DNA of 64,000 nt from a virus (IMGVR_UViG_2915212873_000001:4973-68972); one strand, 5' to 3'; counted from the stretch's first letter, positions 1 to 62,211 are shown. Program-made: numbers and translations. Notes: generated by a model not told the origin, from the letters alone.

Positions 1-972
1 GGCGCTTCGGTCGCGGATGCCGGACTCGTGCTGGCGCAGCCGTTGGTGGTAGCGGCTGCGGCCGTAGGCGCCGAGTGATATGTGGTTCGGCCAAACGATG
101 TAGCCGAGGAATGGCACGCCGGCGGCCACCGGTGCCAAGCGGATTTTCTTGGGATGCAGGGTCAGCCCGTCGCCGGCCAGCTTTTCGACGATGGCGGTGC
201 TCAACTCCAGCAACTGCGCGCGGGAGGATGCAAGGATGACGATGTCGTCGACGTAGCGGACGTATGCTTTCACGCGCAGGTCTTGCTTGATCCAGTGGTC
301 GAAGTCCGACAGGAAGACGTTCGCGAACAGCTGACTAGACAAATTGCCAATCGGCATTCCCTTATCCCGTGTCCGGCGGTACAGGCCATCAGCCGGAAAT
401 AGGGCATCGAACTGGTCGTCGGTGCGGAACGAGTCGATCAGGCCGACGATCAGGGCGCGCACGTCCTGGTCGCCGATGTAGCGCAGCGCTCGCGCCTTCA
501 GCAGGGAGTGATTCACCGAATAAAAGTACTTGGAGATATCTACCTGCAGCGCCCAACTGTTCGCCGGCGAGCGTGCGAACTGCGCCAAGCGGTCGACCGC
601 AGCATGCGTTCCGCGATTCGGCAGGTTGCCAAAGGTGTCGTGGATGAACCTTGGCTGCCAGATCGGCAGCAGGTACTGGTACAGCATCCAATGGACGATG
701 CGATCCTTCATTGGTGCATCGACCACGTGGCGGAATTTTTTCTCGCGCACGGTGAATGTTTTGTACGGCCCGAAGGTGTATTCGCGGGCGCGCAGCCGGC
801 GTTGGATCTCAACCAGGTGCCGGAGCGCGTCGTCGCCAAAGCGCTGCACGCGGAGGCTGGCTGACTTGCTGCGCTTCGCCTGGCGCCAGCACGCATAGAG
901 GTTGGGCAATGACGTCAGTTCGGCGAACTTCGCCGGCGCCGTGCCGCGTTCCGCTGCGGCACTCGTGAGCAC
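1..972 (-). CDS. DGR reverse transcriptase, 3' end outside the window (start uncertain; GTG at 972 is plausible, frame open up to an ATG at 1200)
   Basis: Manual translation: LPNLYACWRQAKRSK, KFRHVVDAPMKDRIVHW, LQVDISKYFYSV, KGMPIGNLSSQLFANVFL (GxxxSQ, DGR-type), RYVDD at 244-255, FLGY; no stop before base 1, hence absent from the ORF track. Confidence 0.97.
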   Translation of the reverse strand, partial: MLTSAAAERGTAPAKFAELTSLPNLYACWRQAKRSKSASLRVQRFGDDALRHLVEIQRRLRAREYTFGPYKTFTVREKKFRHVVDAPMKDRIVHWMLYQYLLPIWQPRFIHDTFGNLPNRGTHAAVDRLAQFARSPANSWALQVDISKYFYSVNHSLLKARALRYIGDQDVRALIVGLIDSFRTDDQFDALFPADGLYRRTRDKGMPIGNLSSQLFANVFLSDFDHWIKQDLRVKAYVRYVDDIVILASSRAQLLELSTAIVEKLAGDGLTLHPKKIRLAPVAAGVPFLGYIVWPNHISLGAYGRSRYHQRLRQHESGIRDRSA

Positions 973-1094
973 CGCAGCGGTCTTCGGTTTGGCAGATTGC
1001 CGCGCTTTCGGGATGATTATCCCAGGAGAGTCTCGACCAAGAATTGACCTTCCGTCGGCTAGCAGCCGAACGTCTAGGTATGAAATTTTTGGGT

Positions 1095-1209
1095 CAGCGG
1101 AGGCCCACGTTGTCGTTGGCGTTGTCCGGCCAGTCGTTGTCGAGATTGAACACGCCGGCGTTGTCCTCGGAGTTCCAGTAGCCGCCCCGGATGAGGGCAT
1201 TGCCAGCCC
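1095..1209 (-). repeat. DGR template repeat (TR)
   Basis: 115 bp gap-free match to 2191-2305; 24 adenines on the coding strand in 16 codons, 8 of them AAC/AAT; lies between the accessory gene and RT. Confidence 0.98.
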
Positions 1210-1238: not shown

Positions 1239-2096
1239 TCATGCTTTTGCCTTCATGGAGCGCATGATGCCTCCGGTCAGACGCCCAAGCTCGACGGCTA
1301 AGCCAACTCGATGCTCAAACGCAAATTTGAGTTGGCTAAGCCCTGCGGCCTGAGTGAGGTAATGTTTCAGCAAATCAATGTCGGCCGAAATCGAGGTCAG
1401 AACTATCGGTTTGTTTGCGGCTTCGCCGAAGGCGTAGATCGCACGCATGATTCGCCCCATGCAGGCGCGCAGGTTTTCCCCGTACGTGGTGCGCAGGTCG
1501 CGGGGCATCTTGATAATGTCCGCCAGAAGGGCGTCGTCCAGCGCTTGCGCGTGAGACTTCAGTTTGAAGCCTGAGCTGTCGGGATTCGCAAGGATCTGCT
1601 TCGCGGCAGCCTGGCTCAGTTGCCCGCGAGTCCGCAGATCGTCGATCACCTGGTGAACGATATCGGCGCTGACGCTGGCCATCAGATTCGAGGTGCCGGC
1701 GTTTTGTTCGGAAACGTAGATTTTCTGATCCTCGCCCCGGGCGCCAAGCGCCACCACATAAGGCATGCCGAATTCCTGCACCATAGGCCAAAGGCGCTTC
1801 TGGAAATTCTTGATCGGGAAGCCGACACGAATATGCGGCTGGTCCGTCGTGCCAACCAACTGCAGTTTGTAGCTCTTGAGCGTTGCCAGCACGTGCGCGG
1901 TGCGATCGAAGCCGTGCAGGAAGCCGCCAGCCTGGATCAGGATGAGGTGATCGCGATATTGCTGCTCCAGTTTCGCGGCTTGGACGGCACCAGCGTCTGC
2001 TGCGCCCAGCCCGATGTCGACCCCGCGCATTGCGCGAATCGCAAATTGGTCCCGCTCGGCTGCCGTCGGGTTTTGTGACTTGTACTCTTGCATCAT
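1239..2096 (-). CDS. avd: DGR accessory protein: N-terminal MutS-I-like domain fused to a C-terminal Avd four-helix bundle
   Basis: C-terminal ~110 aa (KMPRDLRTTYGENLR...IDLLKHYL...ELGRLTGG) fits Avd and its position before TR; QQYRDHLILIQAGGFLHGFDRTAHVL...RVGFP resembles MutS domain I; start taken at ATG 2096. Confidence 0.8.
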   Translation of the reverse strand: MMQEYKSQNPTAAERDQFAIRAMRGVDIGLGAADAGAVQAAKLEQQYRDHLILIQAGGFLHGFDRTAHVLATLKSYKLQLVGTTDQPHIRVGFPIKNFQKRLWPMVQEFGMPYVVALGARGEDQKIYVSEQNAGTSNLMASVSADIVHQVIDDLRTRGQLSQAAAKQILANPDSSGFKLKSHAQALDDALLADIIKMPRDLRTTYGENLRACMGRIMRAIYAFGEAANKPIVLTSISADIDLLKHYLTQAAGLSQLKFAFEHRVGLAVELGRLTGGIMRSMKAKA

Positions 2097-2124
2097 CGTT
2101 CTCGTTTCAGTTGAGGGGGGGGTA

Positions 2125-2149
2125 CCGACCACCGCTGCGCAGTGATCGG
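2125..2149 (-). promoter_or_regulatory. Candidate DGR target-recognition hairpin downstream of VR
   Basis: CCGACCAC...GTGATCGG imperfect inverted repeat about 25 bp past the target stop codon, where characterised DGRs have a hairpin/cruciform. Confidence 0.5.
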
Positions 2150-2174: not shown

Positions 2175-2906
2175 CTATTCGGGCTTGGTGCAGCGGAGGC
2201 CCACGTAGGCGACGGCGTAGTCCGGCCAGCCGAGGTCGAGACGGAACACGCCGGCGCAGTCCCCGGAGTCCCAGCAGCCGCCCCGGAGGAGGGCATCGCC
2301 AGCCCAGTCACTGCCAACACGTGGTTGCCAGCCGGCGCCCTTGGTCATGGACGGTGCGACCGCACTGGTGATCGATGGCGAGTCGGCGGTGAAGGCGGAG
2401 GTCACCAGACCTTGCTCGTCGCCCTGTACGTCGTCGAAGATCCAGGTGAATGCGTTGCCGGATGCGTCGCAAATGCGCTCGCCGTTCGACAGGGTGAACC
2501 AACGGTCCTCGTCGGCATCCGATGACACGTAGGTGCCGGCCAGAGCCGATTCGACGGACCATTTCCGCAGACCTTGTTTCAGCTTTCCTTCGCCGACCAC
2601 GCCGCTGGTCCAGTTGGCGGCCACGCTGGCGATATCCAATGCCAGCGACAGGTATTGCGATTCGGTGATCAGCGCCAGGCCGGCGGCCTTGCTGGCGGTT
2701 ACGGCGTCGTGGTAGTTGATCTCGACCAGCGGCGCGCGATCAGCTACGGCCATCAACTCGCCCGCATCGTTGCGCGAGGTCAGGTACTGGCCCACAAGGA
2801 ACGACGGCACGATTCGGCCACCCGGCAGGGTGCGCTCCGGCACACGTACGAAGATCGATTCCGTCGCCTGAATGGCGGTGGCTTCTGTTGCGGTGATTGC
2901 GTTCAT
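2175..2906 (-). CDS. DGR target protein, FGE-sulfatase/C-type lectin fold, with VR at the C-terminus
   Basis: FLVGQY...INYHDA...LITESQY...GNAFTW...ALLRGGCW...AGVF...VGLRC pattern typical of CLec/FGE DGR targets; AGGAG RBS; no signal peptide seen. Confidence 0.92.
   Translation of the reverse strand: MNAITATEATAIQATESIFVRVPERTLPGGRIVPSFLVGQYLTSRNDAGELMAVADRAPLVEINYHDAVTASKAAGLALITESQYLSLALDIASVAANWTSGVVGEGKLKQGLRKWSVESALAGTYVSSDADEDRWFTLSNGERICDASGNAFTWIFDDVQGDEQGLVTSAFTADSPSITSAVAPSMTKGAGWQPRVGSDWAGDALLRGGCWDSGDCAGVFRLDLGWPDYAVAYVGLRCTKPE
2191..2305 (-). repeat. DGR variable repeat (VR)
   Basis: 17 mismatches to TR, all at TR adenines; 13 codons changed. Confidence 0.98.
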
Positions 2907-2951: not shown

Positions 2952-3497
2952 TCAGTGTTGTGGCGCACCGTGGTATGCCATCAGCTGGTGATAGCGGTCC
3001 ATGAAATAGCTGTACGCTTCGACCGGTTGCATTGGCACGATCACCTGCGCCAGCGGCTCGACGCCCGGCCATTCCTGATAGTGATGCGGTGGCATCAGGT
3101 CGCGCTTCTCCGTCGCCAGCAAGATCAGATCGGCAGCTTTGATCGCCGGGTCCAGCGGCAGGGTGATGCCGAAGCGCCCGAGGATCGCGGCCTCAATGGC
3201 CTGCTCCAGCACCTGGTAGTCCGGCAGCAACCGCTTGAGCGGCTTCGGCAAGTCCTTCATCACTGCTTCGGAGCAGTCGTGCAGCAGGCCGACCATGGCC
3301 AGCTCTGGCGGGACGATCAAGCTGACCAGCACCGAGTGCTGAGCCACGCTGTAGAAGCTAAGCGTCTGGCCGTTGAATCGCGCCTCGTTGGCCAGGCCGC
3401 TTGCGATGTCCTCGATGGTGATAATCGAGGTCTCCGGCGACAGGAAATTGAAGAAGTTCCCGGAGCGCAGCAAGATGTCGGGGCGGTGGGCGCTCAT
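2952..3497 (-). CDS. HD-domain phosphohydrolase (YfbR/YfdR-like nucleotidase)
   Basis: [27 protein letters not shown] and LLHDCSEA motifs. Confidence 0.88.
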
Positions 3498-4720
3498 GCT
3501 GCACCGCCTTGCGCCAGCAGCGCACGGTCACCGTTCGACGCCGCTGCACTGACCACGCCGGCGGCCTCCATCGCATTCATCAGATGGGCTGCGCGGTTGT
3601 AGCCGATGCGCAGGTGGCGCTGGAGCAGCGATACAGACGCGCGCCGATTGGTGCGCACCACGGTCACTGCCTGCTGGTAAAGCGGATCGCTGGCGGTGCC
3701 GTCGCCGGGCGGAACTTCGCCGGCCGCGCCGACCACGCGCTGCGCGCGCACCGGCTCGTCGCCCTTAGCAGGTGATGCAGGTGATGCAGGTGCGGCAGCG
3801 TCAGCTTCCGCCGGCGTGCCGTCCGCGCGCGCCTCGCCGCCCAGCGCCTCCACCAGATCACCCAGCAGCTTGGCCAGCTCGCCGGTCATCAGCATGAAGT
3901 CGCCGTCGAAGCGCTCGCCGTCGTTGCGGCTGGTGACTTCCTTCTCTGTCAGAACGTCCAGCGGCTTGACCGACTTGACGGCCAGGCTCTCGTCCAGCAC
4001 GAAGCTGATCTTGCTATCCCAGGTCATGGCCAGCCGCGTGCACTGCTTGCCGTTCTCGATGTGACGGCGCACGTCGGCCGGGTCCAGCGTGTGCTTCTTG
4101 TAGGCCACCTGGGCTTTACTCTCGCCGGTGGCGCGCAGCGTGGCGTCCTGGTCGACTGTGAAGCCGGCCGGTGCTTCGTCGGTTTGCAGCCATTCGGTCA
4201 TCACGCCCACCGGCGAGCGCTGCACGCGCAGGCTTTCCAGCGGCATGCGGTCGACCGCCTTCAGCAGCAGCTTGATGACTTCATCGGCCTTGGCAGGGGA
4301 AGCGGCATCCACTACTAGCCAGCCGTTGACCGGGTCGATCCACGTCCAGGTGTTCGATTCGATCGTGAATGCTCGCGGCAGCAGCTCGTCGGTGACGCGC
4401 TCCTTCAATTCCTTCATCGCCTTCTTGCCGGGCGCGAAGCCTTGCTGCTCTTCCAGTTCGGCGGCGCGCGCCTTCGTCACCTGGTTGATGACGGTGGCCG
4501 GCAGCAGCTTCTTTTCGCCGCGCAGGCGGATCAGCATCTGCTTGTTGACGGTGTGCACCAGGCCTCCATCCTTGCGCGGCGCGTCCCAGCCCTGGCGGAT
4601 CAGCTCGTTGCTGCTGGCCGGCGCGAACGTGTAGCTGGCCAGCTGTTTGGCCAGGTGCTCGGCGGTCATGGTGAATCCCGGAATGCGATAAATTTGAAGG
4701 TTTTTGAAGAACATGCTCAT
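3494..4720 (-). CDS. rdgC: Recombination-associated protein RdgC with a C-terminal FtsK-gamma-like winged helix
   Basis: [10 protein letters not shown] start, [28 protein letters not shown]; C-terminal DPLYQQAV...[21 protein letters not shown]. Confidence 0.92.
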
Positions 4721-5319
4721 TTCCCTAACTTTTCGAATGCGGCTTCAACGCCGTGTTTTTGGATTTGTCGGTTCAGGCGCTCTGCTGTAACGCCGAGCTG
4801 ATCGGCCCAATCTTTGCGGCACATGGTTTTTCCTCTGTGGGTAATTTGATGATTGCTGCGCCGGTTTCGGCATTGCTCCGCGTTCGTCGCCCACTTACAG
4901 TTGTCCGGCCCATAACCTTTGCTGTTGTCGATTCTTTCCAGTGACATGCCAGCCGGACGCTCACCCATGTCAGCCAGGAACACTTCGAAAGAGTCCCATT
5001 CTTTGCATACCGTAATGCCGCGAGCTCCATATCCGGCATAACCCGAAGAGCCCGGCTTGCCGCAGCGCGCCCGCATTGTTTTCCAGATGACATGCGTACT
5101 AGTGCCCGACATGCCATGAGTTGCACGCTCACGCGCCTTGTCTGCTGCATGACAGCCGCAGGACTTCACTTGACCGGATTTCAAATGACTACCCCTAACA
5201 AAGGTCGTTTGCCCGCAATCACATTTGCATGTCCAAACGATTTTCCCGGAGGTGCTTCTTGCCATCTCGCCGACTGCAAGTCGGCCGAATCGTTGGCCCT
5301 CGAGTTTGTCGGCAATCAT
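4717..5319 (-). CDS. HNH-type homing endonuclease-like protein
   Basis: [49 protein letters not shown]. Confidence 0.8.
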
Positions 5320-5783
5320 TGCGGCCCTCGTATTGGTGGTTCGTGAAACTCGACGCCCATCTGGCCGCCGAATGCGTGTATCTGTTCCATGTACTGGGCG
5401 AAGCCCTTGACCGTTAGGTCGGTGGTGCTACCTACCAGCACCGCCTGGCCGCCCGGGTCGAAGTCCCACTTCCTGTACTGCTCGTCCTTGCACAGATCCG
5501 GGTCGAATTCATCTGGCAGGAACTGCTGCTTGAAGTACTCGTGCCACACCTCGGCGCTGTACTGCCGCCTGTCGCTCCACACCTGCTCCGAGATGTCTTT
5601 CAGCGGGCCCGCCCACATGCGGGCGTTCTGATCCAGCTTCCGCACCTTTACTTCTTCGCGTACCAACACTTCCAGCGGACGCTCGGCGTCCAGCGGCACG
5701 TTGCGGAGCAGGGCGATGGCGCGGTCGACCTGCTCCTGGCCGCGCAGCAGCAACTTGCGCTGCTCGAACTTCGGGCGGGTCAA
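5316..5783 (-). CDS. ninB: NinB/Orf-family recombination protein
   Basis: RKLDQNARMW...WHEYFKQQFL...STTDLTVKGFAQYMEQIHAFG; TTG start overlaps the upstream TGA. Confidence 0.8.
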   Translation of the reverse strand: MTRPKFEQRKLLLRGQEQVDRAIALLRNVPLDAERPLEVLVREEVKVRKLDQNARMWAGPLKDISEQVWSDRRQYSAEVWHEYFKQQFLPDEFDPDLCKDEQYRKWDFDPGGQAVLVGSTTDLTVKGFAQYMEQIHAFGGQMGVEFHEPPIRGPQ

Positions 5784-6916
5784 GGCGGCGTCTCCACCGC
5801 CAGCGCTGCTACCTTGGTGGTTACCGTCTGCGAATTCAACGCGATCACCTTGTTCGGGGCGCGATCCCAGCCAGCCACCTCGTCGGCAGTGAATTTTCCG
5901 GCCTGCGAAAGGTCGCTCGTATAGCCGCACGCGCCCACGCGGTGATAGAGTTCGTGGCCGGTGTGGTAGATCGCGAACAGCGCCGGATTGCCTGGAAACA
6001 GGATGTCGCGCAGAGCGCCGGCGCGCTCGAAGTTCAATGCCTTGATCGCCTTAGCCATTTCACCTTCCAAGCGGCTGCGGCGCTGTCGAGCATTCCGCTT
6101 AACCCTTGGATCGCCCGGGCACTCGCTGTACAGCTCCTTGTGGTACGCCCACTCAATTCCATGCGTCCCAGTTACCACCATCCAGCGGCCATTCAAGCTG
6201 TAATACGCGGAGCCGTACACCACCCGCCCGGCACTTGTGATCGCATAGACCTTGGAGCCGTCTTCGATGGCGACGCCGTCACCGGTGAAGCCATCCTCTG
6301 GGCTGTTAAAGGAAGCACGGCCGAGGCGCTCCACGTAATGACCGGAGGTGCGTTGGCTATGCTTCGCATATTCCAGCGCAGTGGCGCCATCAATCCCTAG
6401 CTTTGGACTGGATGGTTTAAACGTGTAGCCGCTCAGGACATTGAGAAGGTAAGTGCGAATCCGACGCCGTGCCCGCTCCATTTCGAGCCACATCACGTAT
6501 GGCATATGTTTTTCTTTATCGTGTTGGTAACGGCCGCCGTTATCAGGTCGGTCTGGGGCATTCACGTTTTGGAAGAAATCCAGTTGAATGCACCGCCCCG
6601 AAATATTTAGATCTGCGTGCAGATCACCCTTCTGGCAAAGCCGTTTCGACTCAGCGGACCAGCGGGCCACATTGCCGCCGTAGTGCTTGACGTCGTGCTC
6701 GCACACCTCGGGCATCGCGCAGATCCAGCCAAGGCGATTGAGCGTCTGGACAATGCGTGCGAACACTTCGCGCTTGAATGCGCGGCACCAACGCTTTTCC
6801 TCCGGGTAGCCGCCAGCTGCCCGCGCGGCCGATATGCCTTCCTCGTAAATGTTGAGGCTGGCGTCGCCGAAGGTGATGGTTCCGGCGCGGTCAATGCGCC
6901 CGATTGTCATGCTCAT
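5780..6916 (-). CDS. Hypothetical phage protein (378 aa)
   Basis: Long ORF coupled to both neighbours in the leftward operon. Confidence 0.75.
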   Translation of the reverse strand: MSMTIGRIDRAGTITFGDASLNIYEEGISAARAAGGYPEEKRWCRAFKREVFARIVQTLNRLGWICAMPEVCEHDVKHYGGNVARWSAESKRLCQKGDLHADLNISGRCIQLDFFQNVNAPDRPDNGGRYQHDKEKHMPYVMWLEMERARRRIRTYLLNVLSGYTFKPSSPKLGIDGATALEYAKHSQRTSGHYVERLGRASFNSPEDGFTGDGVAIEDGSKVYAITSAGRVVYGSAYYSLNGRWMVVTGTHGIEWAYHKELYSECPGDPRVKRNARQRRSRLEGEMAKAIKALNFERAGALRDILFPGNPALFAIYHTGHELYHRVGACGYTSDLSQAGKFTADEVAGWDRAPNKVIALNSQTVTTKVAALAVETPP

Positions 6917-7605: not shown

Positions 7606-9423
7606 TTAAGCTGCAGCGCGCAGTTCGGCGCGCAGGGTTGCGATATCGATGATGACGAGGCGGTCGAGCAGGGCGGCCAGCTGCATGCCGGCGGAGCTGG
7701 CCAGCGAGTTCAGGAAGTCGATGTCCTGCCGCACTTCGCGGTCGGCCACGTCGAACAGGCCGGCCGTGGTGCCGGTGGCGGCCGGCGCCGGCGTGCTGGC
7801 CAGCGGCGCGTCACGGTAGAAGCTGGCAGTGCGCTGCACATCGGCGGCGCCGCTGGCTGGCGGGGTGGTGGTGCGCGCGGCGGCTGCCAAGGCTTGAGCT
7901 TGGGCAACTGCGGCGGCGGCCGTGGTCGGGCGAGCCTGGGTAGCAACGGCGGCCTGCTGGGCACGCTGCTCGGCGGCCACGCGGTCACGTTCGGCCTGCG
8001 CGGCCGCAGCCTGGCGATCAGCATCAGCCTTGCGCTCGGCGGCCAGCTTCTCAGCGGCGGCAGCTTCGGCCTTGGCCTTTTCCTCGGCGGCGATCCGGGC
8101 GCGCAGCGCTTCCTGCTTGACCTCTTCGGCGCGGATGTGGTCGGCGATGCGGGTGCGCACCACCAGCTGGAAATCATCAATAGCTTTCCACGACAACTGT
8201 TGCAAGTCGCGGAACAAACCGGCATGGTCGCCGACGTTTGCGTTGTACCAGGCCAGCTTGGCGCGAAGATCGGCGGCTGCTTGACTCGCGGCGATTTTGG
8301 CGTTCGCCAGCGTGGTGTTGGCGGCGTCGTGAAGGCTGGCCAGCGTGCGCTTGTTCTTCATGGCGCCGGCGAAGTCGGGTGCGGGCAGTGAAATTTTCAG
8401 CGGCGCAATTTCTTCTTCAAGCGCCACAACATGATCCTGATAGGCATAGCGGCCTTCGTTCAGAATGGTTTCCTTGATCTGCTCTTTGCGCACCTTGACC
8501 AGCTTTTCCAGTTCCAGGCGCTTGGCGCGGAACTGCGCCTTGATGTGGTCGACCGTGCGCATCACCTCGTCGATGGTCGAGGTCTGCGCCAGCGCGGCGG
8601 CCTTGGCCAGCTCCAGCTTTTGCTCGGCCTCGCCGCAGAACTTGACGTTGTACTCGGCGTCGGCGAAGTCCTGATCATCCTGCAGGTCGGTCTTGATCGT
8701 CGCGAGGAACTTCTCGGCGGCCTTCTGGTAGGCCATCAGGTTGCTGCTGACTACTTTGCCTTCGGTCTGCACGACCAGCGCGGGCAGGGCGGTGGCCGGC
8801 GCGGCCTCGGGCTTCACGGCGTGGTTGACCTGTGTGTAGCTGGCTACATCCGCGTCGAACTGCTCCCAGCCGGCGACGATGCGTGCGAACCAGCTGGTAT
8901 CTGGATACACCCAGGTCCACACCCTATTCGCCTCGGTGCCATCGGACACCATGAACATCCACTTCTCGGCGCCGGTGACCATCAGCTCCTGCTGGACCTG
9001 CGGCATGTGAGTGTCGGGCACTTCGCCGGCCGCAACGGCGGCGGCCAGCTGCTCGTTCCACTGCTTGTGCTCCCAGCCCAGCGAGTCGCAGATGGTCAGG
9101 CCGTCGCACGACGCGCTGATGCGGCCGAGCGAGCAGGTAACAGGGTAGAGCGAATCGTTGATGACCTTCTCGGCAAGCGGGCGCGCCAGCGCTTCGACTT
9201 CGTGGCCGTGGTCCAGGATCTTTTCCTGCACCCAGTCGCTGAATTCTTTCGCCAAACCGGTTGCCTTCATGCGCACCAGTTCGTCGCGAGTGACTTTGTC
9301 GGACAGGCCCAGCATGGCAGCCGCTTCACTGGCGCCGTTGTGCTGCGAGCGGAAGGTGTGCCATTCGTCGCTACCTTGGGCGAGCTGGTGCACTACGTGA
9401 TGAATGTTAGGATCGCGTTGCAT
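7606..9423 (-). CDS. YqaJ/lambda-exonuclease-family recombination nuclease with long coiled-coil and Ala-rich tail
   Basis: QGSDEWHTFR...GASEAAAMLG...ASCDG...WEHK...PQVQQEL. Confidence 0.9.
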   Translation of the reverse strand: MQRDPNIHHVVHQLAQGSDEWHTFRSQHNGASEAAAMLGLSDKVTRDELVRMKATGLAKEFSDWVQEKILDHGHEVEALARPLAEKVINDSLYPVTCSLGRISASCDGLTICDSLGWEHKQWNEQLAAAVAAGEVPDTHMPQVQQELMVTGAEKWMFMVSDGTEANRVWTWVYPDTSWFARIVAGWEQFDADVASYTQVNHAVKPEAAPATALPALVVQTEGKVVSSNLMAYQKAAEKFLATIKTDLQDDQDFADAEYNVKFCGEAEQKLELAKAAALAQTSTIDEVMRTVDHIKAQFRAKRLELEKLVKVRKEQIKETILNEGRYAYQDHVVALEEEIAPLKISLPAPDFAGAMKNKRTLASLHDAANTTLANAKIAASQAAADLRAKLAWYNANVGDHAGLFRDLQQLSWKAIDDFQLVVRTRIADHIRAEEVKQEALRARIAAEEKAKAEAAAAEKLAAERKADADRQAAAAQAERDRVAAEQRAQQAAVATQARPTTAAAAVAQAQALAAAARTTTPPASGAADVQRTASFYRDAPLASTPAPAATGTTAGLFDVADREVRQDIDFLNSLASSAGMQLAALLDRLVIIDIATLRAELRAAA

Positions 9424-13498: not shown

Positions 13499-13534
13499 TT
13501 CGCTCTCCATCGTGTTTGGTGTGTCGATGGAGTC

Positions 13535-13593
13535 ATTAAACCATAGGTTGAATTTAAACGTCAACCCAAGGTTGAATATATTTTCGGTTGAAT
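13535..13593 (-). promoter_or_regulatory. PL promoter with repressor operators (OL)
   Basis: TTGACG-18-TTTAAT with extended TG; overlaps two 19-bp ATTCAACC-N3-GGTTGAAT-like palindromes (13535-13553, 13559-13577) and a half-site at 13586-13593. Confidence 0.75.
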
Positions 13594-13861
13594 CGAAATT
13601 TTTTTGATTTGTTGGGCTTTTGCCGCTTGGAGCCGCCGGCGTATGGACTTCGGAGTGGGGATGCTGCCTGACAGGCAGTGTTTGGGAAAGAGTGGCCGAA
13701 AATGGAGTGGCGCCGGCCGGGTCTATCGAAGGCGATGCTGGTGGTGATACTCTTGCGATTCAGCCGTAGTGGGCGCGATGGGTGCGGCGCCAGTGGCACT
13801 TCAGGGAAGTTTCGTTTCGCGCAGGAATAGCACCGTTAATCCAACCATATAGGGATCGGAC

Positions 13862-14488
13862 ATGAACGATCGAGTTTCACAAGAATTGCTGGCGGCTGCT
13901 GCAGCCCAAGCTGCAACTCAGGCTATCGCCGACGCCGCCGATGTGATTGACTTCGAGAGACTCATTACAATTGAGGATCACAAATTGGTCGCGGACTCGC
14001 TCGGCGTGGCCAAGGCATTCAAGAAGGCCCACAAATACATCTTGCGGCAGATTGATCAGATGCGGGACAGTAAGCAGCCAGAGATCGCAAATCATTGGCG
14101 GCTCAATTTTGAGCCGCGAATCCGAACCTACAAAACGGGCAAGGGGCAGACCCGGCAGTCGCGCATGTACCTGATGACCAAAGACGGCCTCAGTGAGTTG
14201 GCTATGAGCTTCACTGGTGATCGGGCCCGCCTTGTGCGAATTCGATTCATCGCCGCTTTCAATGCTATGGCGGATCAACTGCAAAATCAGGGGAATAACT
14301 TGGTGAGGCAGTTCTTTGCAACAGAAGTGCAGTACACCAACGAGAAGTCGAAGGTGAGCGCCAGTGCTAGAAACATGCGCCTTTGGCAAAAAAAGAAGCC
14401 GGAACTGACTGGCACAATGGATCGACTGCGCGCGGACATCCAACTAAAGCTGGGTCTCGAAGTACCAGGCCAACTGGATAAGCGATAG
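13862..14488 (+). CDS. Rha-family phage regulatory protein
   Basis: DSLGVAKAFKKAHKYILRQI...MYLMTKDG...LAMSFTG...RFIAAFNAM. Confidence 0.88.
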   Translation: MNDRVSQELLAAAAAQAATQAIADAADVIDFERLITIEDHKLVADSLGVAKAFKKAHKYILRQIDQMRDSKQPEIANHWRLNFEPRIRTYKTGKGQTRQSRMYLMTKDGLSELAMSFTGDRARLVRIRFIAAFNAMADQLQNQGNNLVRQFFATEVQYTNEKSKVSASARNMRLWQKKKPELTGTMDRLRADIQLKLGLEVPGQLDKR

Positions 14489-14493
14489 GTGTT

Positions 14494-14519
14494 AAAAAGC
14501 CCCGACTGGCGGGGCTTTC
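14494..14519. terminator. Bidirectional intrinsic terminator
   Basis: AAAAAGCCCCG-ACTGG-CGGGGCTTT between convergent genes. Confidence 0.8.
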
Positions 14520-14530
14520 TATAAAGCGCA

Positions 14531-15394
14531 CTATTCGAGCGACTCAGGTGCGATCTTCTTAGTCGTGCGGAAAATCATGATTGGCGTGATGCCGTACCGA
14601 TCTACAGGTCGCCCGAGTCCCTCTCGGACGCCGTTCAACATCGTGCCCATCGCAATTTCGATTGGACTTAATTGATGGTAGTTTTGAGCGTCCGAGCCGA
14701 AATAGAGGCCATCAGGCAGCGCGTCGAGAATGCCTAACGTATGCCACTCCCCCTGCAGTGCACTTCCGTGCTTAAACGTTAAGTCGTCGGCGCTGGCAAG
14801 CAGACACTCGGGCTTCAGTGTGAACCATGCGGCATCGGAGTCAGTGAACAAGGTCCCTTGTAACGAATGGGGGAGCTTGGCGATCATCTTCGCTAGCGCC
14901 TCAAATTCCTTCTTTTTTTGCACAGCGACTCTTTGGCGCTCTTTGATGTTCTGTATGCTCGCAGTCTCATTGGCAGCAACCATCTCCCCCATATCTACCC
15001 AAAGGTCGCGGAGAATTCGGATATCAACCAAGGTTATTGAGCCTTTGACGAGAACAAGTGCGCCCACCGGGGAGTTACTGAGGCCGCCGGAAATGTAGCC
15101 AGCATCGAAGAGGGCGTCCAGCGTCTCTTGCGGCCTTGAAAAAGCCGCATCGATGTTGATCTCTAACGAGTGCTCATTTGTCGTCTCGGCAGCCATTCCT
15201 CCGGAAAGGACCGGAATTTTTACGGTGCCGCTAGACCCTTGTTTGCCACCTTCCTTTGTGATCCGCTTCGATCCGACGACCAATCCGTTGGAGGAGAGTT
15301 GACTGTAATAATGCGACAACTTGACGTTGTCGATGTAGACGTAGTCACAGAGGTATTCGACGCTTGGTGATTCTTGTTCCTGATTCAATTGCAT
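14531..15394 (-). CDS. Hypothetical cargo protein (287 aa, possibly DUF6414-like)
   Basis: DYVYIDNVKLSHYYSQL N-terminus; lower GC; family recalled from memory only. Confidence 0.65.
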   Translation of the reverse strand: MQLNQEQESPSVEYLCDYVYIDNVKLSHYYSQLSSNGLVVGSKRITKEGGKQGSSGTVKIPVLSGGMAAETTNEHSLEINIDAAFSRPQETLDALFDAGYISGGLSNSPVGALVLVKGSITLVDIRILRDLWVDMGEMVAANETASIQNIKERQRVAVQKKKEFEALAKMIAKLPHSLQGTLFTDSDAAWFTLKPECLLASADDLTFKHGSALQGEWHTLGILDALPDGLYFGSDAQNYHQLSPIEIAMGTMLNGVREGLGRPVDRYGITPIMIFRTTKKIAPESLE

Positions 15395-15542
15395 CGCGAG
15401 CTTTCTTTTGTTGTTCCGAAATCTCGCGCCCTCTTGAGTTTAGGTCCTCAGCAATGACTCCAAATACACGGGCAGCATCTTTCCTGTCGACCTTGTCGCC
15501 GCCAAGAATACCGCGAACCGCTCTTGTTAATTTGGTTTTCAT
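15345..15542 (-). CDS. Small hypothetical protein overlapping the next gene
   Basis: 65-aa basic ORF. Confidence 0.5.
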   Translation of the reverse strand: MKTKLTRAVRGILGGDKVDRKDAARVFGVIAEDLNSRGREISEQQKKARDAIESGTRITKRRIPL

Positions 15543-15748
15543 GTCTCGATTATAGACTTAGTGCGGGCGCAAGTGGTTAAGTGGTGTTGAATAGTTTGGG
15601 GTTCCGGCTTGCCGAGTCGGCTTGATTGCCAGAACGCTCTCACGCAGCAGCAACTTTGCCGCGAGTCACGCGCCTTTATTTGCAGTATACGTAATCTTGC
15701 TATCTTGAAATCTATCGAATTCTCACGCCGCATCGGATGGTTCGCGGG

Positions 15749-16258
15749 CTATTTCTTGGTCAAGTGCGACTTTGGCATCCAGAAAGATTTCTTGCTCTTG
15801 TCAGCAATTACCCATATCGCCTGACTGTCGGCCGGATTGTTCATCACAGAGACGCGGATATTGGGGCTGCCTTTGGTGCACTGAGCCATCGCCTGGTCAA
15901 GGGTTGCCACACCAGCCTTTTTACGGAGCAAATCCAGAATCATGCGAGTCTTGTTTGGACCATCTTTACCATCGAGATATTCAGGCTCGCCAGTTTTAGG
16001 CGAGATGGCCGGCATTTGTCCCGTGAACTGAATCGACGTGCTCACCAAGCCTATAACGAAGTTGACGTATTCGGATAACTCTTTGCTCGCACAGGCGTAA
16101 TATGGATCGTCCTTTTTGAAGTAGGTGATTGCGCGATCGCCTGCAGAGCAGACCTTGATGTGACAAGCGTCATTGATATCGGCATCTGCGGCCACGCACG
16201 TCGATGAAGCTAAGGCGAAAATGATGAGGAGTTTATGCATATAAGAAGTCATCACCAA
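15749..16258 (-). CDS. Putative exported Cys-containing protein
   Basis: MHKLLIIFALASSTCVAADA signal-peptide-like start; low GC. Confidence 0.65.
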   Translation of the reverse strand: MVMTSYMHKLLIIFALASSTCVAADADINDACHIKVCSAGDRAITYFKKDDPYYACASKELSEYVNFVIGLVSTSIQFTGQMPAISPKTGEPEYLDGKDGPNKTRMILDLLRKKAGVATLDQAMAQCTKGSPNIRVSVMNNPADSQAIWVIADKSKKSFWMPKSHLTKK

Positions 16259-16314
16259 TAGATGGAAAGTGAATTATATGCAAACTTGACAATAGGAAAT
16301 CTATCGAATTATCA

Positions 16315-16539
16315 CTACTTTTCGGCTTCGGCTCGACGCAGCATTGCCTTGATGTCATCAACATCGGTCGCTACCGTGCGCATCTGTTCATGCAGGTTGA
16401 ATGCCCGTAGTCGGAAGTTGATTTCGTCGTTGAGCGTCCAGCCCTTGGACTCCGCGATATTTTTCAGTTCGGTATGCAGGGTCATTGGCATCCGGATTGT
16501 CAGAGCCTTAACTTTGGCGTTCAGTTTGGAATCGGTCAT
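16315..16539 (-). CDS. Arc-like ribbon-helix-helix DNA-binding protein
   Basis: LTIRMPMTLHTELKNIAESKGWTLNDEINFRL. Confidence 0.8.
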   Translation of the reverse strand: MTDSKLNAKVKALTIRMPMTLHTELKNIAESKGWTLNDEINFRLRAFNLHEQMRTVATDVDDIKAMLRRAEAEK

Positions 16540-16767
16540 GCGCGCGATATTGCGGGACAATTTCGCAAAGTGTTGTATTTGGTGCGGATAAGTGTCAGTT
16601 TTTTTCGACTCTCGGAAAAATTTCAAGACTCGCGCTCACTACAGGAACCGCACTGGGCATAGCGGGGCATCGATAAATTTCCAATTGATAATATAAAGTT
16701 CCTATCGGAATCATGTGACAATTCGCGTATATTCGTAATTACCCTAATAACATCAAGGAGTTATGAA

Positions 16768-16941
16768 ATGAATTGTAATGAATCCCGGCACTCGGAAGAT
16801 GAGCAAGCTAGGGAGGCTTTGGAGAAAATGAGTGACGAAGCCGTCAAAGCCATGGCCGACGCACTGGAGAAAATGGTCGAAAAGAACGAGGAGGAGCCCA
16901 AGCCAGAGCTCCGAATCGTTAAACCAGATCAAAAACAATGA
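16768..16941 (+). CDS. Small acidic protein (57 aa; not in the ORF track)
   Basis: AAGGAG RBS; MNCNESRHSEDEQAREALEKMSDEAVKAMADALEKMVEKNEEEPKPELRIVKPDQKQ. Confidence 0.5.
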   Translation: MNCNESRHSEDEQAREALEKMSDEAVKAMADALEKMVEKNEEEPKPELRIVKPDQKQ

Positions 16942-17082
16942 CCTGATATGCACCAAATTGATCTGCCTAAAAGTTGCAGATCAATCGTTTACAAATGTAA
17001 AGTTCAGTGAAGTGACAATTTGATAGTTTCTAACTGCAAGTTATGTCGTATTGTTGTTTATCGAATACGAAAGTTGCTTGCA

Positions 17083-17226
17083 ATGAATGACGTTGAACGG
17101 GCCATGAGGGCGTTTAAAAAGTTGGATGCAAACCGCCGCCGCATCATGTTGCCAGTATTAAAAAGCCTTGCTGTATCACGCGCCAGAAAGGCCGCCCTTC
17201 GTTTGGTTGTCAACAACCGACGTTAG
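17083..17226 (+). CDS. Small basic protein convergent with the repressor
   Basis: MNDVERAMRAFKKLDANRRRIML. Confidence 0.45.
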   Translation: MNDVERAMRAFKKLDANRRRIMLPVLKSLAVSRARKAALRLVVNNRR

Positions 17227-17646
17227 GGGTGATTTTTCGATTGAGCGCGCCACATCCTCGATGATTCCTTTTGAATCTTCCGTCGCCATCCGAAACCAAT
17301 TCAGAAGTTGCGCCTCGCGCTGCGATATGACGTTGAGTTCCGCCAGCACGTCGGCATGCACATGATCACTATCTGAGCGCGGTGCCGACGGCAATTTGAA
17401 CCTGGTCGGAAGAGGTGGCTTTTGGTCGCCGTCGACCGGTGGCGCAATGCCATCGGACAAGAGATCGTCCAAGCTAACCTGCAATAGGTTCGCTACTGTG
17501 ACAGCGTTCGCCCTGGAGATCTTCCCAGTCTTAATCCATTTCGATACGGCGTTGTTAGACACGCCAGCTTTCTCAGCGAGCCAGCCTTGTGTCTTGCCCA
17601 TTTTTTCCAGTCGTTTCGACAGGATTTCACCAACATATGTACTCAT
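17176..17646 (-). CDS. cI: CI-like XRE-family repressor lacking an S24 autocleavage domain
   Basis: KTQGWLAEKAGVSNNAVSKWIKTG HTH; divergent from cro; start at ATG 17646. Confidence 0.88.
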   Translation of the reverse strand: MSTYVGEILSKRLEKMGKTQGWLAEKAGVSNNAVSKWIKTGKISRANAVTVANLLQVSLDDLLSDGIAPPVDGDQKPPLPTRFKLPSAPRSDSDHVHADVLAELNVISQREAQLLNWFRMATEDSKGIIEDVARSIEKSPLTSVVDNQTKGGLSGA

Positions 17647-17680
17647 AAGTTGAATCTTCAGTTTAAATTTCGCATCTTTC

Positions 17681-17722
17681 AACCAATCTCTGGTTGAATT
17701 CGAAATCAACCTGTGGTTTAAT
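17681..17722 (+). promoter_or_regulatory. PR promoter with OR operators
   Basis: TTGAAT-17-TTTAAT with extended TG; palindromes at 17681-17699 and 17704-17722 match the OL consensus. Confidence 0.75.
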
Positions 17723-17728
17723 TCGGTC

Positions 17729-17971
17729 ATGAAAACCGAATCCTCATCCCCGATCGAGCGGGCCGTCGAACTTACTGACGGTGTTGCCAACCTCGCTGCC
17801 GCTTGCAACGTGAGCGCACAGGCGGTCTACAAATGGCTGAAGAAGGGCCATCCGCCAGTCGAGCGCTGCGAAGCAATTGAGCGCGCTGTCGGTGGTCGGG
17901 TGACCAAGTTTGAGTTGCTGCAGCCAGCGTTCGATACCGCCACCACCGGAGAACCCCATGCCCATCCGTAA
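17729..17971 (+). CDS. cro: Cro-like (YdaS-type) regulator
   Basis: GVANLAAACNVSAQAVYKWLKKG...PVERCEAIE. Confidence 0.88.
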   Translation: MKTESSSPIERAVELTDGVANLAAACNVSAQAVYKWLKKGHPPVERCEAIERAVGGRVTKFELLQPAFDTATTGEPHAHP

Positions 17972-18038
17972 CCGCATCGACGCGCTGATTGCGCGCTTCG
18001 GGTATGTCCGCGCGCCGGCGATTGCGGGTGGCATCGCA

Positions 18039-48548: not shown

Positions 48549-48790
48549 AAGATCGCCACGTAGGCGATATACAACATGACAATCAGCGCGGCGCCCGCAA
48601 CGACGATGGTGGCGAGGCTGAAAACAGCAAGACCGAGCCGAGTTAGCAGCGGCATTTGATATTTCCACTGCATGCCGTGATGCCGCCGCGTGCGGGCATC
48701 CGCTGGTCGCAGCCGAGGGTACTGGACGAAGCCAACGCGATCGGCCAGCCACTCTTGCATTTTGTCAATTCTATTCACGGAAATGCCCAA
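48545..48790 (-). CDS. Small antisense membrane protein (moron)
   Basis: C-terminal hydrophobic helix LGLAVFSLATIVVAGAALIVMLYIAYVAIF. Confidence 0.55.
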   Translation of the reverse strand: MGISVNRIDKMQEWLADRVGFVQYPRLRPADARTRRHHGMQWKYQMPLLTRLGLAVFSLATIVVAGAALIVMLYIAYVAIF

Positions 48791-50877
48791 TGAGCTTTGA
48801 AGCCTACAAGGTCGCAGTAAAGCTGACTCTTGTCAACCACGTCAGCGCCGGGCTAGTCAGCATTGCGGGCCAACTCCACACTGTGCACGGCGCCGCCGGC
48901 GGCGCACAGAACGCCCTGTCGGGCGTCGAGCGCCAAATGCTGGCGATCAAGCGCGCCGGTATGATTGGCGGCGCGATGGCTGGCCTTGGTTTCGGCATGC
49001 TCGCCATGATGAAGGCGCCACTGGAAGAGGCGGCAAAGTTCGACCAAGCCGTGGGCAAATTCAAACTGTTTGGCATGAGTGAACAGGTGAACGCCGAGGC
49101 GGTCAAGTTCGCACGTGGTATGAATGTCATCGGCTCGAGCTACACCGAGAACATGAAGCTGCTGACGGAGGCGCAAGGCGTATTCCGCGAGTCGGGCATT
49201 GCCGGACCGGCGGCGTTGGAGGGCTCCAAGCTCGCCGCGCCGATGTTGGCAAAAATTAACTTCGCTACCGAGAGTCTGGACGAGGAATCGAAGGCGAAAA
49301 TGCGCACGCAGAGCATGGCGATGCTGCGCTTCGTCGAGATGCGCGGCGGCCTAAAGGATGCGGACACGTTCAACCGCATCGCTGACTCGGGCTGGAAGGC
49401 CGTCCAGAGCTCTGGCGGCAACATCAACTGGGAGCAGATGCGTCAGTTCCTCGCGCGCGGCGGGGTAGCGGCGCAGGGGCTCACCGATACGGCACTGTTC
49501 GGCCACATGGAGCCGATTATCGGCGAGCTGAAAGGCAGCACGGCCGGCAATGCGTGGATGACGGCGTACAATCGCCTCGTCGGCGGTGTCAAAATCCCCA
49601 ACCAGGTCGCCCACTTGCTGGCTGATAACGGGATCTGGGACGCAAAACGCATCGAATGGAACTCGCAGGGTGGCATCAAGCGGTTCAACGGCAACCCGTT
49701 GAAGGATATGGAGACGTTCAGCACCGATCCAACGGTGTTCTACGAGAAACAGATCCTGCCGATGTACGCCAAGATGAACCATGGCGCCGGCCTGAATGCT
49801 GTTGAGCGTGCGCGAGAAAACACGCTGATCTTCGGCCGAACCGGCGGCATGATGTTCTCGCTGATTGATCGGCAAATGGAGACGCTGCGGCATTCGGCCG
49901 AGGCGCAAGCGAAAGCGCTGGGTGTCGACAAGTCCGTCGATGTCGCCAAGCAAACTGTGGCCGGTAAAGAGTTGGACCTGCGTACCCGCTGGACGAATGC
50001 AAAGCAGGATTTCGGTGACGCGGTGCTGCCGCTAGCCATCCGCGTACTGGACGGGCTGACGGGAGCGCTGAAGCGATTCAGTGAGTTCGCAAAGGAGCAC
50101 CCGGGTACCGTGCGTGCGCTGACTTATGCATTCGTAGGTTTGGCTGCCGCTCTGGCGTTTGGTGGTGTTGTCACGCTCGCCGCGACCGGCGTGCGTGGTC
50201 TCGGCTTGGCGTTGCGAGTACTTGGCGCAACCGATGGCGGCATGGCACTTGTTGCGCGCGGCGCGCGATATGCTGGTGTATTTTTGGGGCGCCTAGGCGC
50301 CATAGGTATGGCCTTCGGGGTCGGGTGGACGGTCGGGACACTGCTGTACGACGCCGCGATCAAAGGCACAAAGTTCAGCGATTGGCTCGGCGGCCTCATT
50401 GCCCGGGTACTCAGCTTCTTCGGAAACAAAGAAGCGAAAGAGGCCATCGAGGGCAACAAGTCGCCAGGGCAGCGCACTGCCGAGGCGTGGGCGAAACGCC
50501 AGCAGGACAGGGCTGATGCAGCCTACCAGGCTGGAATTCAGAAACCGATGCTCCAGTCGCTACGCGAAGCTGCAGGGCATCAGCCAAGCGCCGCGCTGGC
50601 CAATACTGCGCCGCGCTCCTATTCCCCTGTCTTGCCACCTGCCGCAAATGGTACGTCGCTGGTGGAAAGCGCGGTCCAGTCTTCGACTAAGTCGATGGTG
50701 CCGCCACCTCAAGCGCTGAAGGTCCAGGTGATATCGAATACGCACCTGAATGGCCGCATCATCGCGCAAGAGGTGTCGGAACAGCAGGCGCGGACTTTTG
50801 CGCGTCCGCCGACCGGCCCATCGGGCGCCGATACTTCGATGGCGCTCGCGCCAGTTTCCTACGCAGGGACTTTCTGA
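48790..50877 (+). CDS. Tape measure protein
   Basis: Long Ala/Gly-rich helical ORF after the chaperones, with hydrophobic segments. Confidence 0.85.
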   Translation: MSFEAYKVAVKLTLVNHVSAGLVSIAGQLHTVHGAAGGAQNALSGVERQMLAIKRAGMIGGAMAGLGFGMLAMMKAPLEEAAKFDQAVGKFKLFGMSEQVNAEAVKFARGMNVIGSSYTENMKLLTEAQGVFRESGIAGPAALEGSKLAAPMLAKINFATESLDEESKAKMRTQSMAMLRFVEMRGGLKDADTFNRIADSGWKAVQSSGGNINWEQMRQFLARGGVAAQGLTDTALFGHMEPIIGELKGSTAGNAWMTAYNRLVGGVKIPNQVAHLLADNGIWDAKRIEWNSQGGIKRFNGNPLKDMETFSTDPTVFYEKQILPMYAKMNHGAGLNAVERARENTLIFGRTGGMMFSLIDRQMETLRHSAEAQAKALGVDKSVDVAKQTVAGKELDLRTRWTNAKQDFGDAVLPLAIRVLDGLTGALKRFSEFAKEHPGTVRALTYAFVGLAAALAFGGVVTLAATGVRGLGLALRVLGATDGGMALVARGARYAGVFLGRLGAIGMAFGVGWTVGTLLYDAAIKGTKFSDWLGGLIARVLSFFGNKEAKEAIEGNKSPGQRTAEAWAKRQQDRADAAYQAGIQKPMLQSLREAAGHQPSAALANTAPRSYSPVLPPAANGTSLVESAVQSSTKSMVPPPQALKVQVISNTHLNGRIIAQEVSEQQARTFARPPTGPSGADTSMALAPVSYAGTF

Positions 50878-54261: not shown

Positions 54262-55383
54262 ATGACAGCACTGAATACAAAAACGTTCGCCACCATGGTG
54301 AGCGACCAAGTCACGTCCATACAGTCCAAAGCGTCGCAGCTGATCAACTTCACGATCGGCTCGGTGCTGCGCGCGCTAGTGGAGACGAACGCGGCGCTGG
54401 GCCTGTGGTTGCAGAGCATGATCATCCAGGTGCTTGGCGTCACGCGCGCTTCGACGTCCAGCGATTCCGACCTCGACTCGTGGATGGCGGACTACGGCGT
54501 GACTCGCATCGCGGCCACGGCTGCCGTGGGTCAGGTGACATTCTCCCGGTTCACCCCGACGACGCAGGCGATTGTGCCGATTGGCTCCATCGTGCAGACG
54601 GCGGACGGCTCGCTGCAGTACGCCGTCACGGTCGACCTGTCGAATCCGTCCTATACGACCGCTGGCTATGTGATCGCGGCCGGTACCGCTAGCGTGACCG
54701 TCCCAGTTCAAGCGCTCGTCGCCGGCGCATCGGGGAACGCCGCCGCCAACCTGGTGACGGCGCTGGCGCAGACGATCCTGTACGTCGATACGGTCACCAA
54801 CGCGGCCGCGTTTTCCGGTGGCGCCGACGCCGAAAGCGACACGGCACTGCGGGCGCGCTTCGTCGCATACATCGCGTCCCTGTCCAAAGCGACCGTGACC
54901 GCCATCGGATATGCAATCGCGGCGGCCGAGCTGGGTGCCTACTACTCGATCGTGGAAAACAAGAAGTACGACGGCTCGGCTGATCTGGGCTACTTCTATA
55001 TCGTTGTGGATGACGGCTCCGGTTCGCCGCCGGCCGCGTTCATCACCACGGTAACGAATGCGGTCGACGCTGTCCGCCCCATCACCACGCGCTTCGGGAT
55101 CTACACGCCCAACGTGATCACCGCCGCAGTGGCGATGACCGTGACGGTGGCCAGCGGCTACGATGCGGCGGCGACCCGGGCGCTGGTGGTAACAGCGCTG
55201 CAAACCTACATCAACTCGCTGGCGCTGGGGCAGACGCTCCAATACACGCGCTTGGCGGCGATCGCCTACGGTGCGTCGGCCGGCGTGGCCAATGTCAGCG
55301 GCGTCACGCTGAATGCCGGCACCGCCGACCTGACCGCCACTGCGCAGCAGGTGATCAAGCATTCGACCGTGGTGGTGTCCTGA
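54262..55383 (+). CDS. Baseplate J-like protein
   Basis: GSVLRALVE, AATAAVGQVTF, GGADAESDTALRAR. Confidence 0.92.
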   Translation: MTALNTKTFATMVSDQVTSIQSKASQLINFTIGSVLRALVETNAALGLWLQSMIIQVLGVTRASTSSDSDLDSWMADYGVTRIAATAAVGQVTFSRFTPTTQAIVPIGSIVQTADGSLQYAVTVDLSNPSYTTAGYVIAAGTASVTVPVQALVAGASGNAAANLVTALAQTILYVDTVTNAAAFSGGADAESDTALRARFVAYIASLSKATVTAIGYAIAAAELGAYYSIVENKKYDGSADLGYFYIVVDDGSGSPPAAFITTVTNAVDAVRPITTRFGIYTPNVITAAVAMTVTVASGYDAAATRALVVTALQTYINSLALGQTLQYTRLAAIAYGASAGVANVSGVTLNAGTADLTATAQQVIKHSTVVVS

Positions 55384-58678: not shown

Positions 58679-58867
58679 ATGCCAGAAGAGGATCGCAAGC
58701 TGACCGATGCCGATGTCGAGGCCATCGTGCAGTTGCTGGACAAAAAGGTGACCGAGCGTTTCTACAGCGACCTCGGTCGCGGTGTGATGGGCTTGGTCTG
58801 GAAGGCCATTGTTGTGGCTATCGTGGGCGTCGCTGCCTACGGTTCTTTGAAAGGTATTTCGAAATGA
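58679..58867 (+). CDS. Small single-TM lysis-cassette protein (holin or antiholin candidate)
   Basis: GVMGLVWKAIVVAIVGVAAYG; ATGA overlap with the endolysin. Confidence 0.6.
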   Translation: MPEEDRKLTDADVEAIVQLLDKKVTERFYSDLGRGVMGLVWKAIVVAIVGVAAYGSLKGISK

Positions 58868-62176: not shown

Positions 62177-62197
62177 CGATTCCGGCTCGAGGCACCA
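62177..62197 (+). repeat. att site: duplicated tRNA 3' end (CGATTCCGGCTCGAGGCACCA), probably tRNA-Leu
   Basis: T-arm half, acceptor strand and CCA with no 5' tRNA half upstream; between the SOS module and an integrase remnant. Confidence 0.75.
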
Positions 62198-62211
62198 CCC
62201 AATCTACAACG

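Follow-up and report, generated by a model that had tools for sequence, protein, structure and literature searches.

The 64,000-nucleotide (nt) viral sequence IMGVR_UViG_2915212873_000001:4973-68972, referred to here as the window (the whole stretch of DNA that was analyzed), is part of a temperate phage of an Oxalobacteraceae-like host and carries a diversity-generating retroelement (DGR). The only target of this DGR is a 243-amino-acid (aa) protein encoded at 2175-2906 on the minus strand, consisting of a single C-type-lectin (CLec) domain and placed among early genes. What is new here is a non-structural protein as the only DGR target, conserved across a large phage group; early-operon placement is a trait of the target family, observed at approximately ninety phage loci. 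This shared early-gene layout makes it probable that the system tunes a property other than receptor binding. On balance, we favor the view that the target is an intracellular, early-acting binder.

Phage DGRs are understood almost wholly through tail-fiber tropism switching, whereas the window DGR serves only a free early lectin protein. The role of non-structural DGR targets has been at issue since they were first seen as second targets in gut phages, and the recurrence of the present layout in some ninety phages that infect soil and freshwater Betaproteobacteria and have unrelated virions renders that role experimentally approachable. If the target does act inside the cell, it would represent a phage-encoded diversifying binder aimed at intracellular partners and would offer a compact 243-aa scaffold for directed evolution.

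DGR cassette and its single variable repeat

The cassette runs leftward in the order target, Avd-like protein, template repeat (TR) and reverse transcriptase (RT), and comprises the following features:

2175-2906, minus strand: DGR target open reading frame (ORF), 243 aa and 25.7 kDa, a single-domain CLec protein of the formylglycine-generating enzyme (FGE) type, acidic, with no export signal
2191-2305, minus strand: variable repeat (VR), codons 201-239 of the 243 in the target
2125-2149, minus strand: hairpin with an 11-bp stem and a 3-nt loop, about 40 nt downstream of the end of the TR/VR homology and before the Avd start
1239-2132, minus strand: Avd-like accessory protein, 297 aa, with the Avd four-helix part at the C-terminus (~190-296)
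1095-1209, minus strand: TR, 115 nt with 24 adenines
1..1090, minus strand: DGR RT (RVT_1, E 7e-23; PADLOC RT, E 1.9e-44)

A 126-nt direct repeat pairs 1089-1214 with 2185-2310, and its core on the coding strand spans 115 nt. All 17 mismatches between TR and VR fall at TR adenines, seven other TR adenines being unchanged; the changes are confined to codon positions 1 and 2, and AAC/AAT codons are abundant in the TR. Homology between the two repeats stops at GTGGGCCTCCGCTG, beyond which the sequences diverge. The stem of the hairpin that follows is present in both the minimum-free-energy and the centroid folds, the z-score of the whole 101-nt stretch not being significant. The RT lies directly downstream of the TR; its ORF is open from 1242 and extends 68 nt past the left end of the window, and its translation carries IGNLSSQ, an instance of the DGR-type (I/L/V)GxxxSQ motif. 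By these sequence features the cassette is a canonical, genuine DGR, and the repeat alignment shows that the RT/TR pair would rewrite at most 24 adenine-coded positions within the last 39 target codons.

The C-terminal ~100 aa of the Avd-like protein match PF22296 bAvd (E 1.4e-3), phrog_3206 (E 2e-5) and NF033474 (E 3.2e-5), all below the curated cut-offs; its conservation and position are compatible with an Avd. At 297 aa it far exceeds a typical Avd, owing to an N-terminal extension of ~190 aa without a family match, which is conserved (as a ~284-aa protein) in 51-62 related DGR loci.

The preliminary description of this DNA had noted by eye no VR copy in the tail-fiber, Gly-rich and beta-helix genes, and this negative now extends to the whole 7.55-Mb genome in which the window lies (contig C11). 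BLAST of the TR against this genome returned only the TR itself and the VR at 2191-2305, as did a scan on the 91 non-adenine TR positions with up to 25 mismatches allowed; no second VR was found in any tail gene or elsewhere. The protein is thus set apart from non-structural second targets, which share a TR with a VR in a tail gene, since the genome holds a single VR. No paralogs of the target, the Avd or the RT were detected elsewhere in the genome.

Structure of the target protein

The AlphaFold model of the target, built from a 47-sequence alignment (predicted local distance difference test score (pLDDT) 81, predicted template modeling score (pTM) 0.83), contains one FGE-type CLec domain at residues ~17-243 with only a short helix ahead of it; the sole low-confidence part is the VR loop, residues 213-226. 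Because the domain covers nearly the whole chain, there is no separate N-terminal module, and the tail-attachment N-terminal domain of an Mtd-type protein is missing, the whole protein being the lectin domain. The top structural matches in the PDB are the DGR variable protein TaqVP (5VF4; Foldseek E 2.4e-5) and FGEs, with TvpA lower. A profile search of PDB sequences with the target reaches FGEs only (E ~1e-3). In Pfam, the target has no match at E<=0.01 and does not reach the threshold of FGE-sulfatase PF03781, whose models its homologs also match only weakly or faintly.

A maximum 19-aa Kyte-Doolittle score of 1.28 indicates that there is no transmembrane helix; a basic N-region and a lipobox are likewise lacking, and the isoelectric point is 4.5. 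The initial characterization as a 243-aa CLec/FGE-fold protein with no signal peptide, transmembrane helix or fiber-like repeats is therefore borne out by hydropathy, by the missing lipobox and by the one-domain model. Viral proteins with this fold in BFVD are mostly fiber-like chains of 500-1500 aa that carry the domain at the C-terminus, unlike the target; only one BFVD match, a 246-aa protein of Microcystis phage LMM01, is comparable in size.

The fold itself is the same as that of fiber-borne CLec domains. This likeness supports an alternative that we judge unlikely, namely that the target is a virion-associated adhesin or receptor-binding protein encoded away from the tail module, whose DGR switches tropism as in BPP-1. 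Such a protein would be made early or continuously and would dock on the fiber or baseplate through a conserved non-VR face or through the N-terminal helix. Experimentally understood phage DGRs all diversify receptor-binding proteins (PMC8144416), which speaks for this alternative; the absence of any docking, trimerization or fiber part in the target speaks against it.

Position of the cassette in the prophage

The 3' end of a tRNA-Leu gene contains a 23-nt core (attL, window -5191) that recurs at the right end of the element (attR, 62177-62199). These cores bound the element, giving a prophage of ~67.4 kb in which the target sits 7.4 kb from attL. Genes for NinB, HNH, RdgC-FtsK-gamma and an HD-domain phosphatase precede the target in a leftward operon on the minus strand, followed by the Avd-like gene, the TR and the RT. 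The preliminary description had read the same succession of HD, rdgC, HNH and ninB genes ahead of the target, and Pfam and PHROGs matches confirm it:

2952-3497, minus strand: HD-domain deoxynucleoside monophosphate (dNMP) phosphatase, immediately upstream of the target (phrog_318, E 1.9e-65)
3494-4720, minus strand: RdgC fused to FtsK gamma (PF04381, E 4e-108; PF09397, E 2e-23)
4717-5319, minus strand: HNH endonuclease (phrog_374, E 1.3e-63)
5316-5930, minus strand: NinB-like protein (PF05772, E 4.5e-15)
7606-9423, minus strand: recombination exonuclease of the RecE/YqaJ type, farther up the same operon (PF09588), with homologs next to the target in 14-23 related loci
17176-17808, minus strand: cI-like helix-turn-helix repressor (HTH_3 and Phage_CI_repr)

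From ~13.25 kb to the RT, the minus-strand genes are tightly packed in a single run, and no promoter- or terminator-like site was found on this strand within the run or between ~13.5 kb and the cassette. A 45-nt gap separates the target from the stop codon of the upstream HD gene, and the ATG of the target is preceded at 5 nt by a strong Shine-Dalgarno sequence, AAAGGAG.

The virion genes and the right attachment site lie at the other end of the window:

48790-50877, plus strand: tape measure, a late gene
54262-55970, plus strand: baseplate, a late gene
55978-57534, plus strand: tail-fiber candidate (518 aa), no VR copy
ending at 58421, plus strand: 305-aa gene after the fiber candidate, no VR copy
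58864-59817, plus strand: endolysin-like gene, a late gene
62177-62199, plus strand: attR core, 23 nt, identical to the tRNA-Leu 3' end at attL

The distance of ~53 kb to the fiber genes given initially proved to be an artifact of the integrated map. In the circular phage, the target is ~11 kb from the fiber genes across attP (7.4 kb as far as attL and 3.8 kb between attR and 58421), a proximity that favors a virion adhesin. The two nevertheless lie on opposite strands and converge, separated by int and seven further genes. Whereas an Mtd-type target belongs to the tail module and shares the orientation of the late genes, this one is encoded on the other strand among recombination and DNA-metabolism genes, which argues against an adhesin.

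Conserved early placement in related phages

At least 198 homologs of the target, 230-310 aa in length, share 50-63% identity with it over the full length, and a profile search of 1.84 billion representatives returned 109 clusters at E<=1e-30. The loci collected, 79 on viral contigs and 37 in genomes, left 103 distinct loci after duplicate removal (92 phage-like) with 157 target copies; two to four copies occur in 46 of the 103. Downstream genes were counted wherever a phage-like locus extended 3 kb or more past the target (78 loci); an Avd-like gene (~284 aa) follows on the same strand in 62 of these and an RT likewise in 59. An adenine-specific TR partner was identified for at least 37 targets, and in multi-target loci the scan often chose another VR over the TR.

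The largest clusters of same-strand neighbors at the 103 distinct loci were labeled with Pfam and PHROGs. They comprise RecE/YqaJ exonuclease (14 loci), a 62-aa protein just upstream of the target (13), RdgC (11), a ParB-like protein (10), HNH endonuclease (9), DNA methyltransferase (8), integrase (8) and a cI-type S24 repressor (7). No structural family is among them, and a homolog of any late gene of the window lies within 10 kb of a target at one locus only. Homologs found consistently in tail modules had been named at the outset as one of the observations that would overturn a non-structural reading, and the survey found no structural neighbor cluster. That ~90 loci share this placement, none adjoining tail genes, weighs further against an adhesin.

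Six contexts labeled with Pfam share one order: a divergent cro/cI switch, early genes, target or targets, Avd, RT, accessory genes, integrase and host DNA. They derive from Duganella sp. BJB476, two metagenomic prophages, a complete 37.5-kb phage with terminal repeats, Aromatoleum toluclasticum and a Gallionella metagenome-assembled genome. In Duganella sp. BJB476, the syntenic DGR prophage (L011 8705-19037) lies beside the same MscS-channel gene as the window prophage; cultured strains with syntenic prophages include this one, Aromatoleum toluclasticum and Thauera butanivorans. In the complete 37.5-kb phage, the cI operon is closed by a strong terminator, after which comes a 10/12 promoter match (L131 8885-9030) flanked by palindromic operator-like repeats, TTAGCGAT...ATCGCTAA. 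A 62-aa gene and then two targets follow this promoter-like site, with Avd and RT 4 kb further on. By this order of terminator and promoter-like site, the targets are among the earliest genes of the phage, a position that also counts against an adhesin.

The neighborhood also allows a reading in which placement is uninformative. Here the cassette would sit in the recombination operon on account of retrohoming, which would require early co-expression with replication and single-strand-annealing functions, and the target would simply travel along and could act anywhere. The commonest neighbors, RecE/RecT-type, RdgC and ParB-like genes, are in keeping with such a requirement, as is the usual contiguity of target, Avd, TR and RT. 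However, several relatives keep their targets within the early operon although these lie 4-8 kb away from Avd and RT, and in published phages whose RT belongs to the tail module, a second target lies far from it among the early genes. Since those remote targets are early despite a tail-module RT, the early position appears to belong to the target itself, and we regard uninformative placement as very improbable.

The cI-adjacent and int-proximal accessory genes of temperate phages are often exclusion or defense genes, as with lambda rexAB and sieB. A location of this type would suit a prophage-borne sensor or excluder acting against other phages or mobile elements and diversified to track invader proteins, comparable to the sensors that DGRs are proposed to diversify in multicellular bacteria. 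The targets of some relatives follow closely after the cI operon, and a second DGR target has been reported in a defense-related island (Benler 2021, PMC8008677). On the other side, the window target is distal in a long operon and has no promoter-like site of its own, so that it is probably silent in the lysogen, and in the complete relative a terminator divides the cI operon from the targets. Neither an effector domain, an adjacent effector gene nor a PADLOC match accompanies the target. A role in exclusion therefore seems quite unlikely.

About one third of the homologs (P0036, residues 1-75, and 26 other long forms) carry a ~70-aa N-terminal domain with the pattern GLYxKFxVxRxDG...YFVLDL...AYA, which is absent from the window target and also occurs as free proteins of 79-126 aa, in viruses only. 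The extension matches no Pfam family, and structural comparison links its fold to small unnamed viral proteins only; a long-form homolog modeled with AlphaFold was predicted too poorly to be used (pLDDT 63). This phage-specific domain could be a docking part, a point in favor of an adhesin. The small gene upstream of the targets was considered as a separate form of this extension, an idea that found no support: a hidden Markov model search gave only seven stand-alone matches, of which none immediately preceded a target or fell within the window. Giant proteins of 900-3700 aa (P0144, P0152, P0156, P0166, P0172 and P0182) likewise contain close matches to the target profile, repeated two to six times in tandem.

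Independence of the target from virion type

Virion modules were compared among 20 long viral records carrying the target, 14 of which are at least 90% complete by CheckV. The baseplate wedge protein of the window was found in three of the 20 records and its major capsid protein in none. The PF04984 sheath, present in two of the 20, is a weak marker that has no match in the window's own prophage, and reliance was accordingly placed on the direct searches with baseplate and capsid proteins. These searches show that virion modules vary among the carriers while the target keeps 50-60% identity. A fiber- or baseplate-docking protein would be expected to travel with its module; the target does not, and the unrelated capsid and baseplate modules of its carriers are a further point against an adhesin.

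Proposed role of the target

The reading of the target as an intracellular early binder can be set out as follows. The whole cassette, comprising the target, the long Avd, the TR and the RT, lies in the leftward early operon, which in phages of this type is under repressor control, between the recombination genes and the integrase. The target would be made early after infection or induction and would remain in the cytoplasm, where its hypervariable surface would bind a variable intracellular partner, most likely a host or competing-element protein engaged in conflict (counter-defense or host takeover). Each new VR allele would be tested during the infection that follows, in which its own genome is the first to express it. 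The pL-type operons and int-proximal regions of temperate phages such as lambda and P22 usually house takeover, anti-restriction and exclusion genes, which makes a role in conflict the most natural one. A more specific form, in which the DGRs of a large group of temperate phages serve as programmable intracellular countermeasures, some progeny genomes receiving an allele that binds and neutralizes a variable host defense or competitor protein (adaptive counter-immunity in place of tropism switching), is possible but doubtful.

Several considerations weigh against an intracellular binder. A search for sequencing runs of the strain listed none, and the early timing is read from operon position. 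Searches of NCBIfam and PADLOC gave no match for the target, so that neither these databases nor Pfam provides a functional hint. The missing export signal does not discriminate, as to our knowledge signal peptides are absent from all phage virion proteins too. Small stand-alone adhesins that dock at fiber tips exist, for example the T2-type gp38. The site in a recombination operon could serve the retrohoming machinery and thereby say nothing about the target. Finally, a tblastn search with the target found no match among 50,697 cultured-phage records, and hence no virion proteome covers it.

Comparison with known DGR systems

Viral DGR targets are mostly tail proteins or proteins of unknown function (Roux et al. 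2021, PMC8144416). Among cataloged targets, the FGE-only category (category b) is the largest, 52 of 71 having no other motif (Wu et al. 2018, PMC5758913). Non-structural second targets have been reported in Quimbyvirus (Benler et al. 2021, PMC8008677) and in the Roseburia phage Shimadzu, in which a second VR lies in an ORF of unknown function and both VRs were mutated (Cornuault et al. 2019, bioRxiv 10.1101/575076). With such second targets already published and FGE-only targets already cataloged, the preliminary description of an undescribed system was overstated; its proposal of a non-structural early binder is supported in part, in that the target is stand-alone, has no fiber or docking part, contains the sole VR and lies in the early operon, a placement conserved in ~90 loci with differing virion modules. 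Our literature searches found no described phage DGR with exclusively non-structural early targets and no description of the Betaproteobacterial target family.

The cassette resembles that of BPP-1 (mtd-avd-TR-brt) in its order of target, Avd, TR and RT, in adenine-specific mutagenesis, in a VR occupying the last codons of a CLec fold and in the AAY codons of the TR. However, BPP-1 Mtd has N-terminal domains, sits at the fiber tip and is encoded by a gene ending the tail module, whereas the window target is a lectin domain only, its cassette lies in an early recombination operon and its Avd is ~2.5 times longer. Quimbyvirus and Shimadzu share with the window a small CLec target off the structural genes, on the other strand and among DNA-metabolism or defense-related genes. 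In those phages, the small CLec protein is a distant second target that accompanies a tail protein, and the RT belongs to the structural module, in contrast to the sole VR and wholly early cassette of the window; their hosts are gut Bacteroidota or Firmicutes, whereas those of the window family are Betaproteobacteria.

TaqVP of a Thermus aquaticus prophage (5VF4; PMC6328139) is likewise an FGE/CLec prophage DGR target with no known partner, although it is longer (380 aa), contains extra inserts and shares only ~20% sequence identity with the window target. TvpA of Treponema denticola (PDB 2Y3C) and the FGE-only category b targets have the same FGE-type CLec fold and C-terminal VR. TvpA is a bacterial surface lipoprotein, unlike the phage-encoded window target, which has no export signal.

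Diversification in nature and cellular relatives

A pair of contigs from two metagenomes (L045 9123-9159 versus L046) shares 12,498 nt with eight differences, all of which fall in one VR at TR adenines. The target of this relative is 57% identical to that of the window, and its TR is nearly identical. This is direct evidence that the DGR of a relative is active, and the family is thus diversified in nature. The window copy, with its intact ORFs and 17 clean adenine substitutions, appears to be functional as well, and the window DGR is probably active.

A paralog of 245 aa with 44-50% identity occurs in Massilia/Telluria (L121/L130 10001-10738; L115-L128), between a carbamoyltransferase/GDSL-lipase cluster and spoT-rpoZ-gmk. 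These homologs were considered as remote DGR targets and rejected, as they lack a TR partner, an Avd and an RT and occupy a chromosomal site by spoT, rpoZ and gmk. The paralog looks like a cellular family member that is not diversified, in agreement with a scaffold of cytoplasmic origin.

Additional features of the prophage

In the RdgC protein encoded at 3494-4720, an Ala/Pro-rich linker leads into the KOPS-binding FtsK gamma domain at the C-terminus. A low-GC island at 13500-18000 (0.49-0.52 versus ~0.62), lying between the leftward operon and the cI-like repressor, is probably moron cargo; its genes include a Rha-family regulator (13862-14488, plus strand) and a DUF6414 protein (14531-15394, minus strand).

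To the left of the RT lie four minus-strand genes (213, 214, 100 and 638 aa), two small genes, a plus-strand integrase, the tRNA-Leu gene and host channel genes. The four genes between the RT and the integrase (window -3511 to 94) have matches to unnamed PHROGs only, and the 213-aa protein has in addition a faint DpdH-like match in PADLOC (E 5.6e-4).
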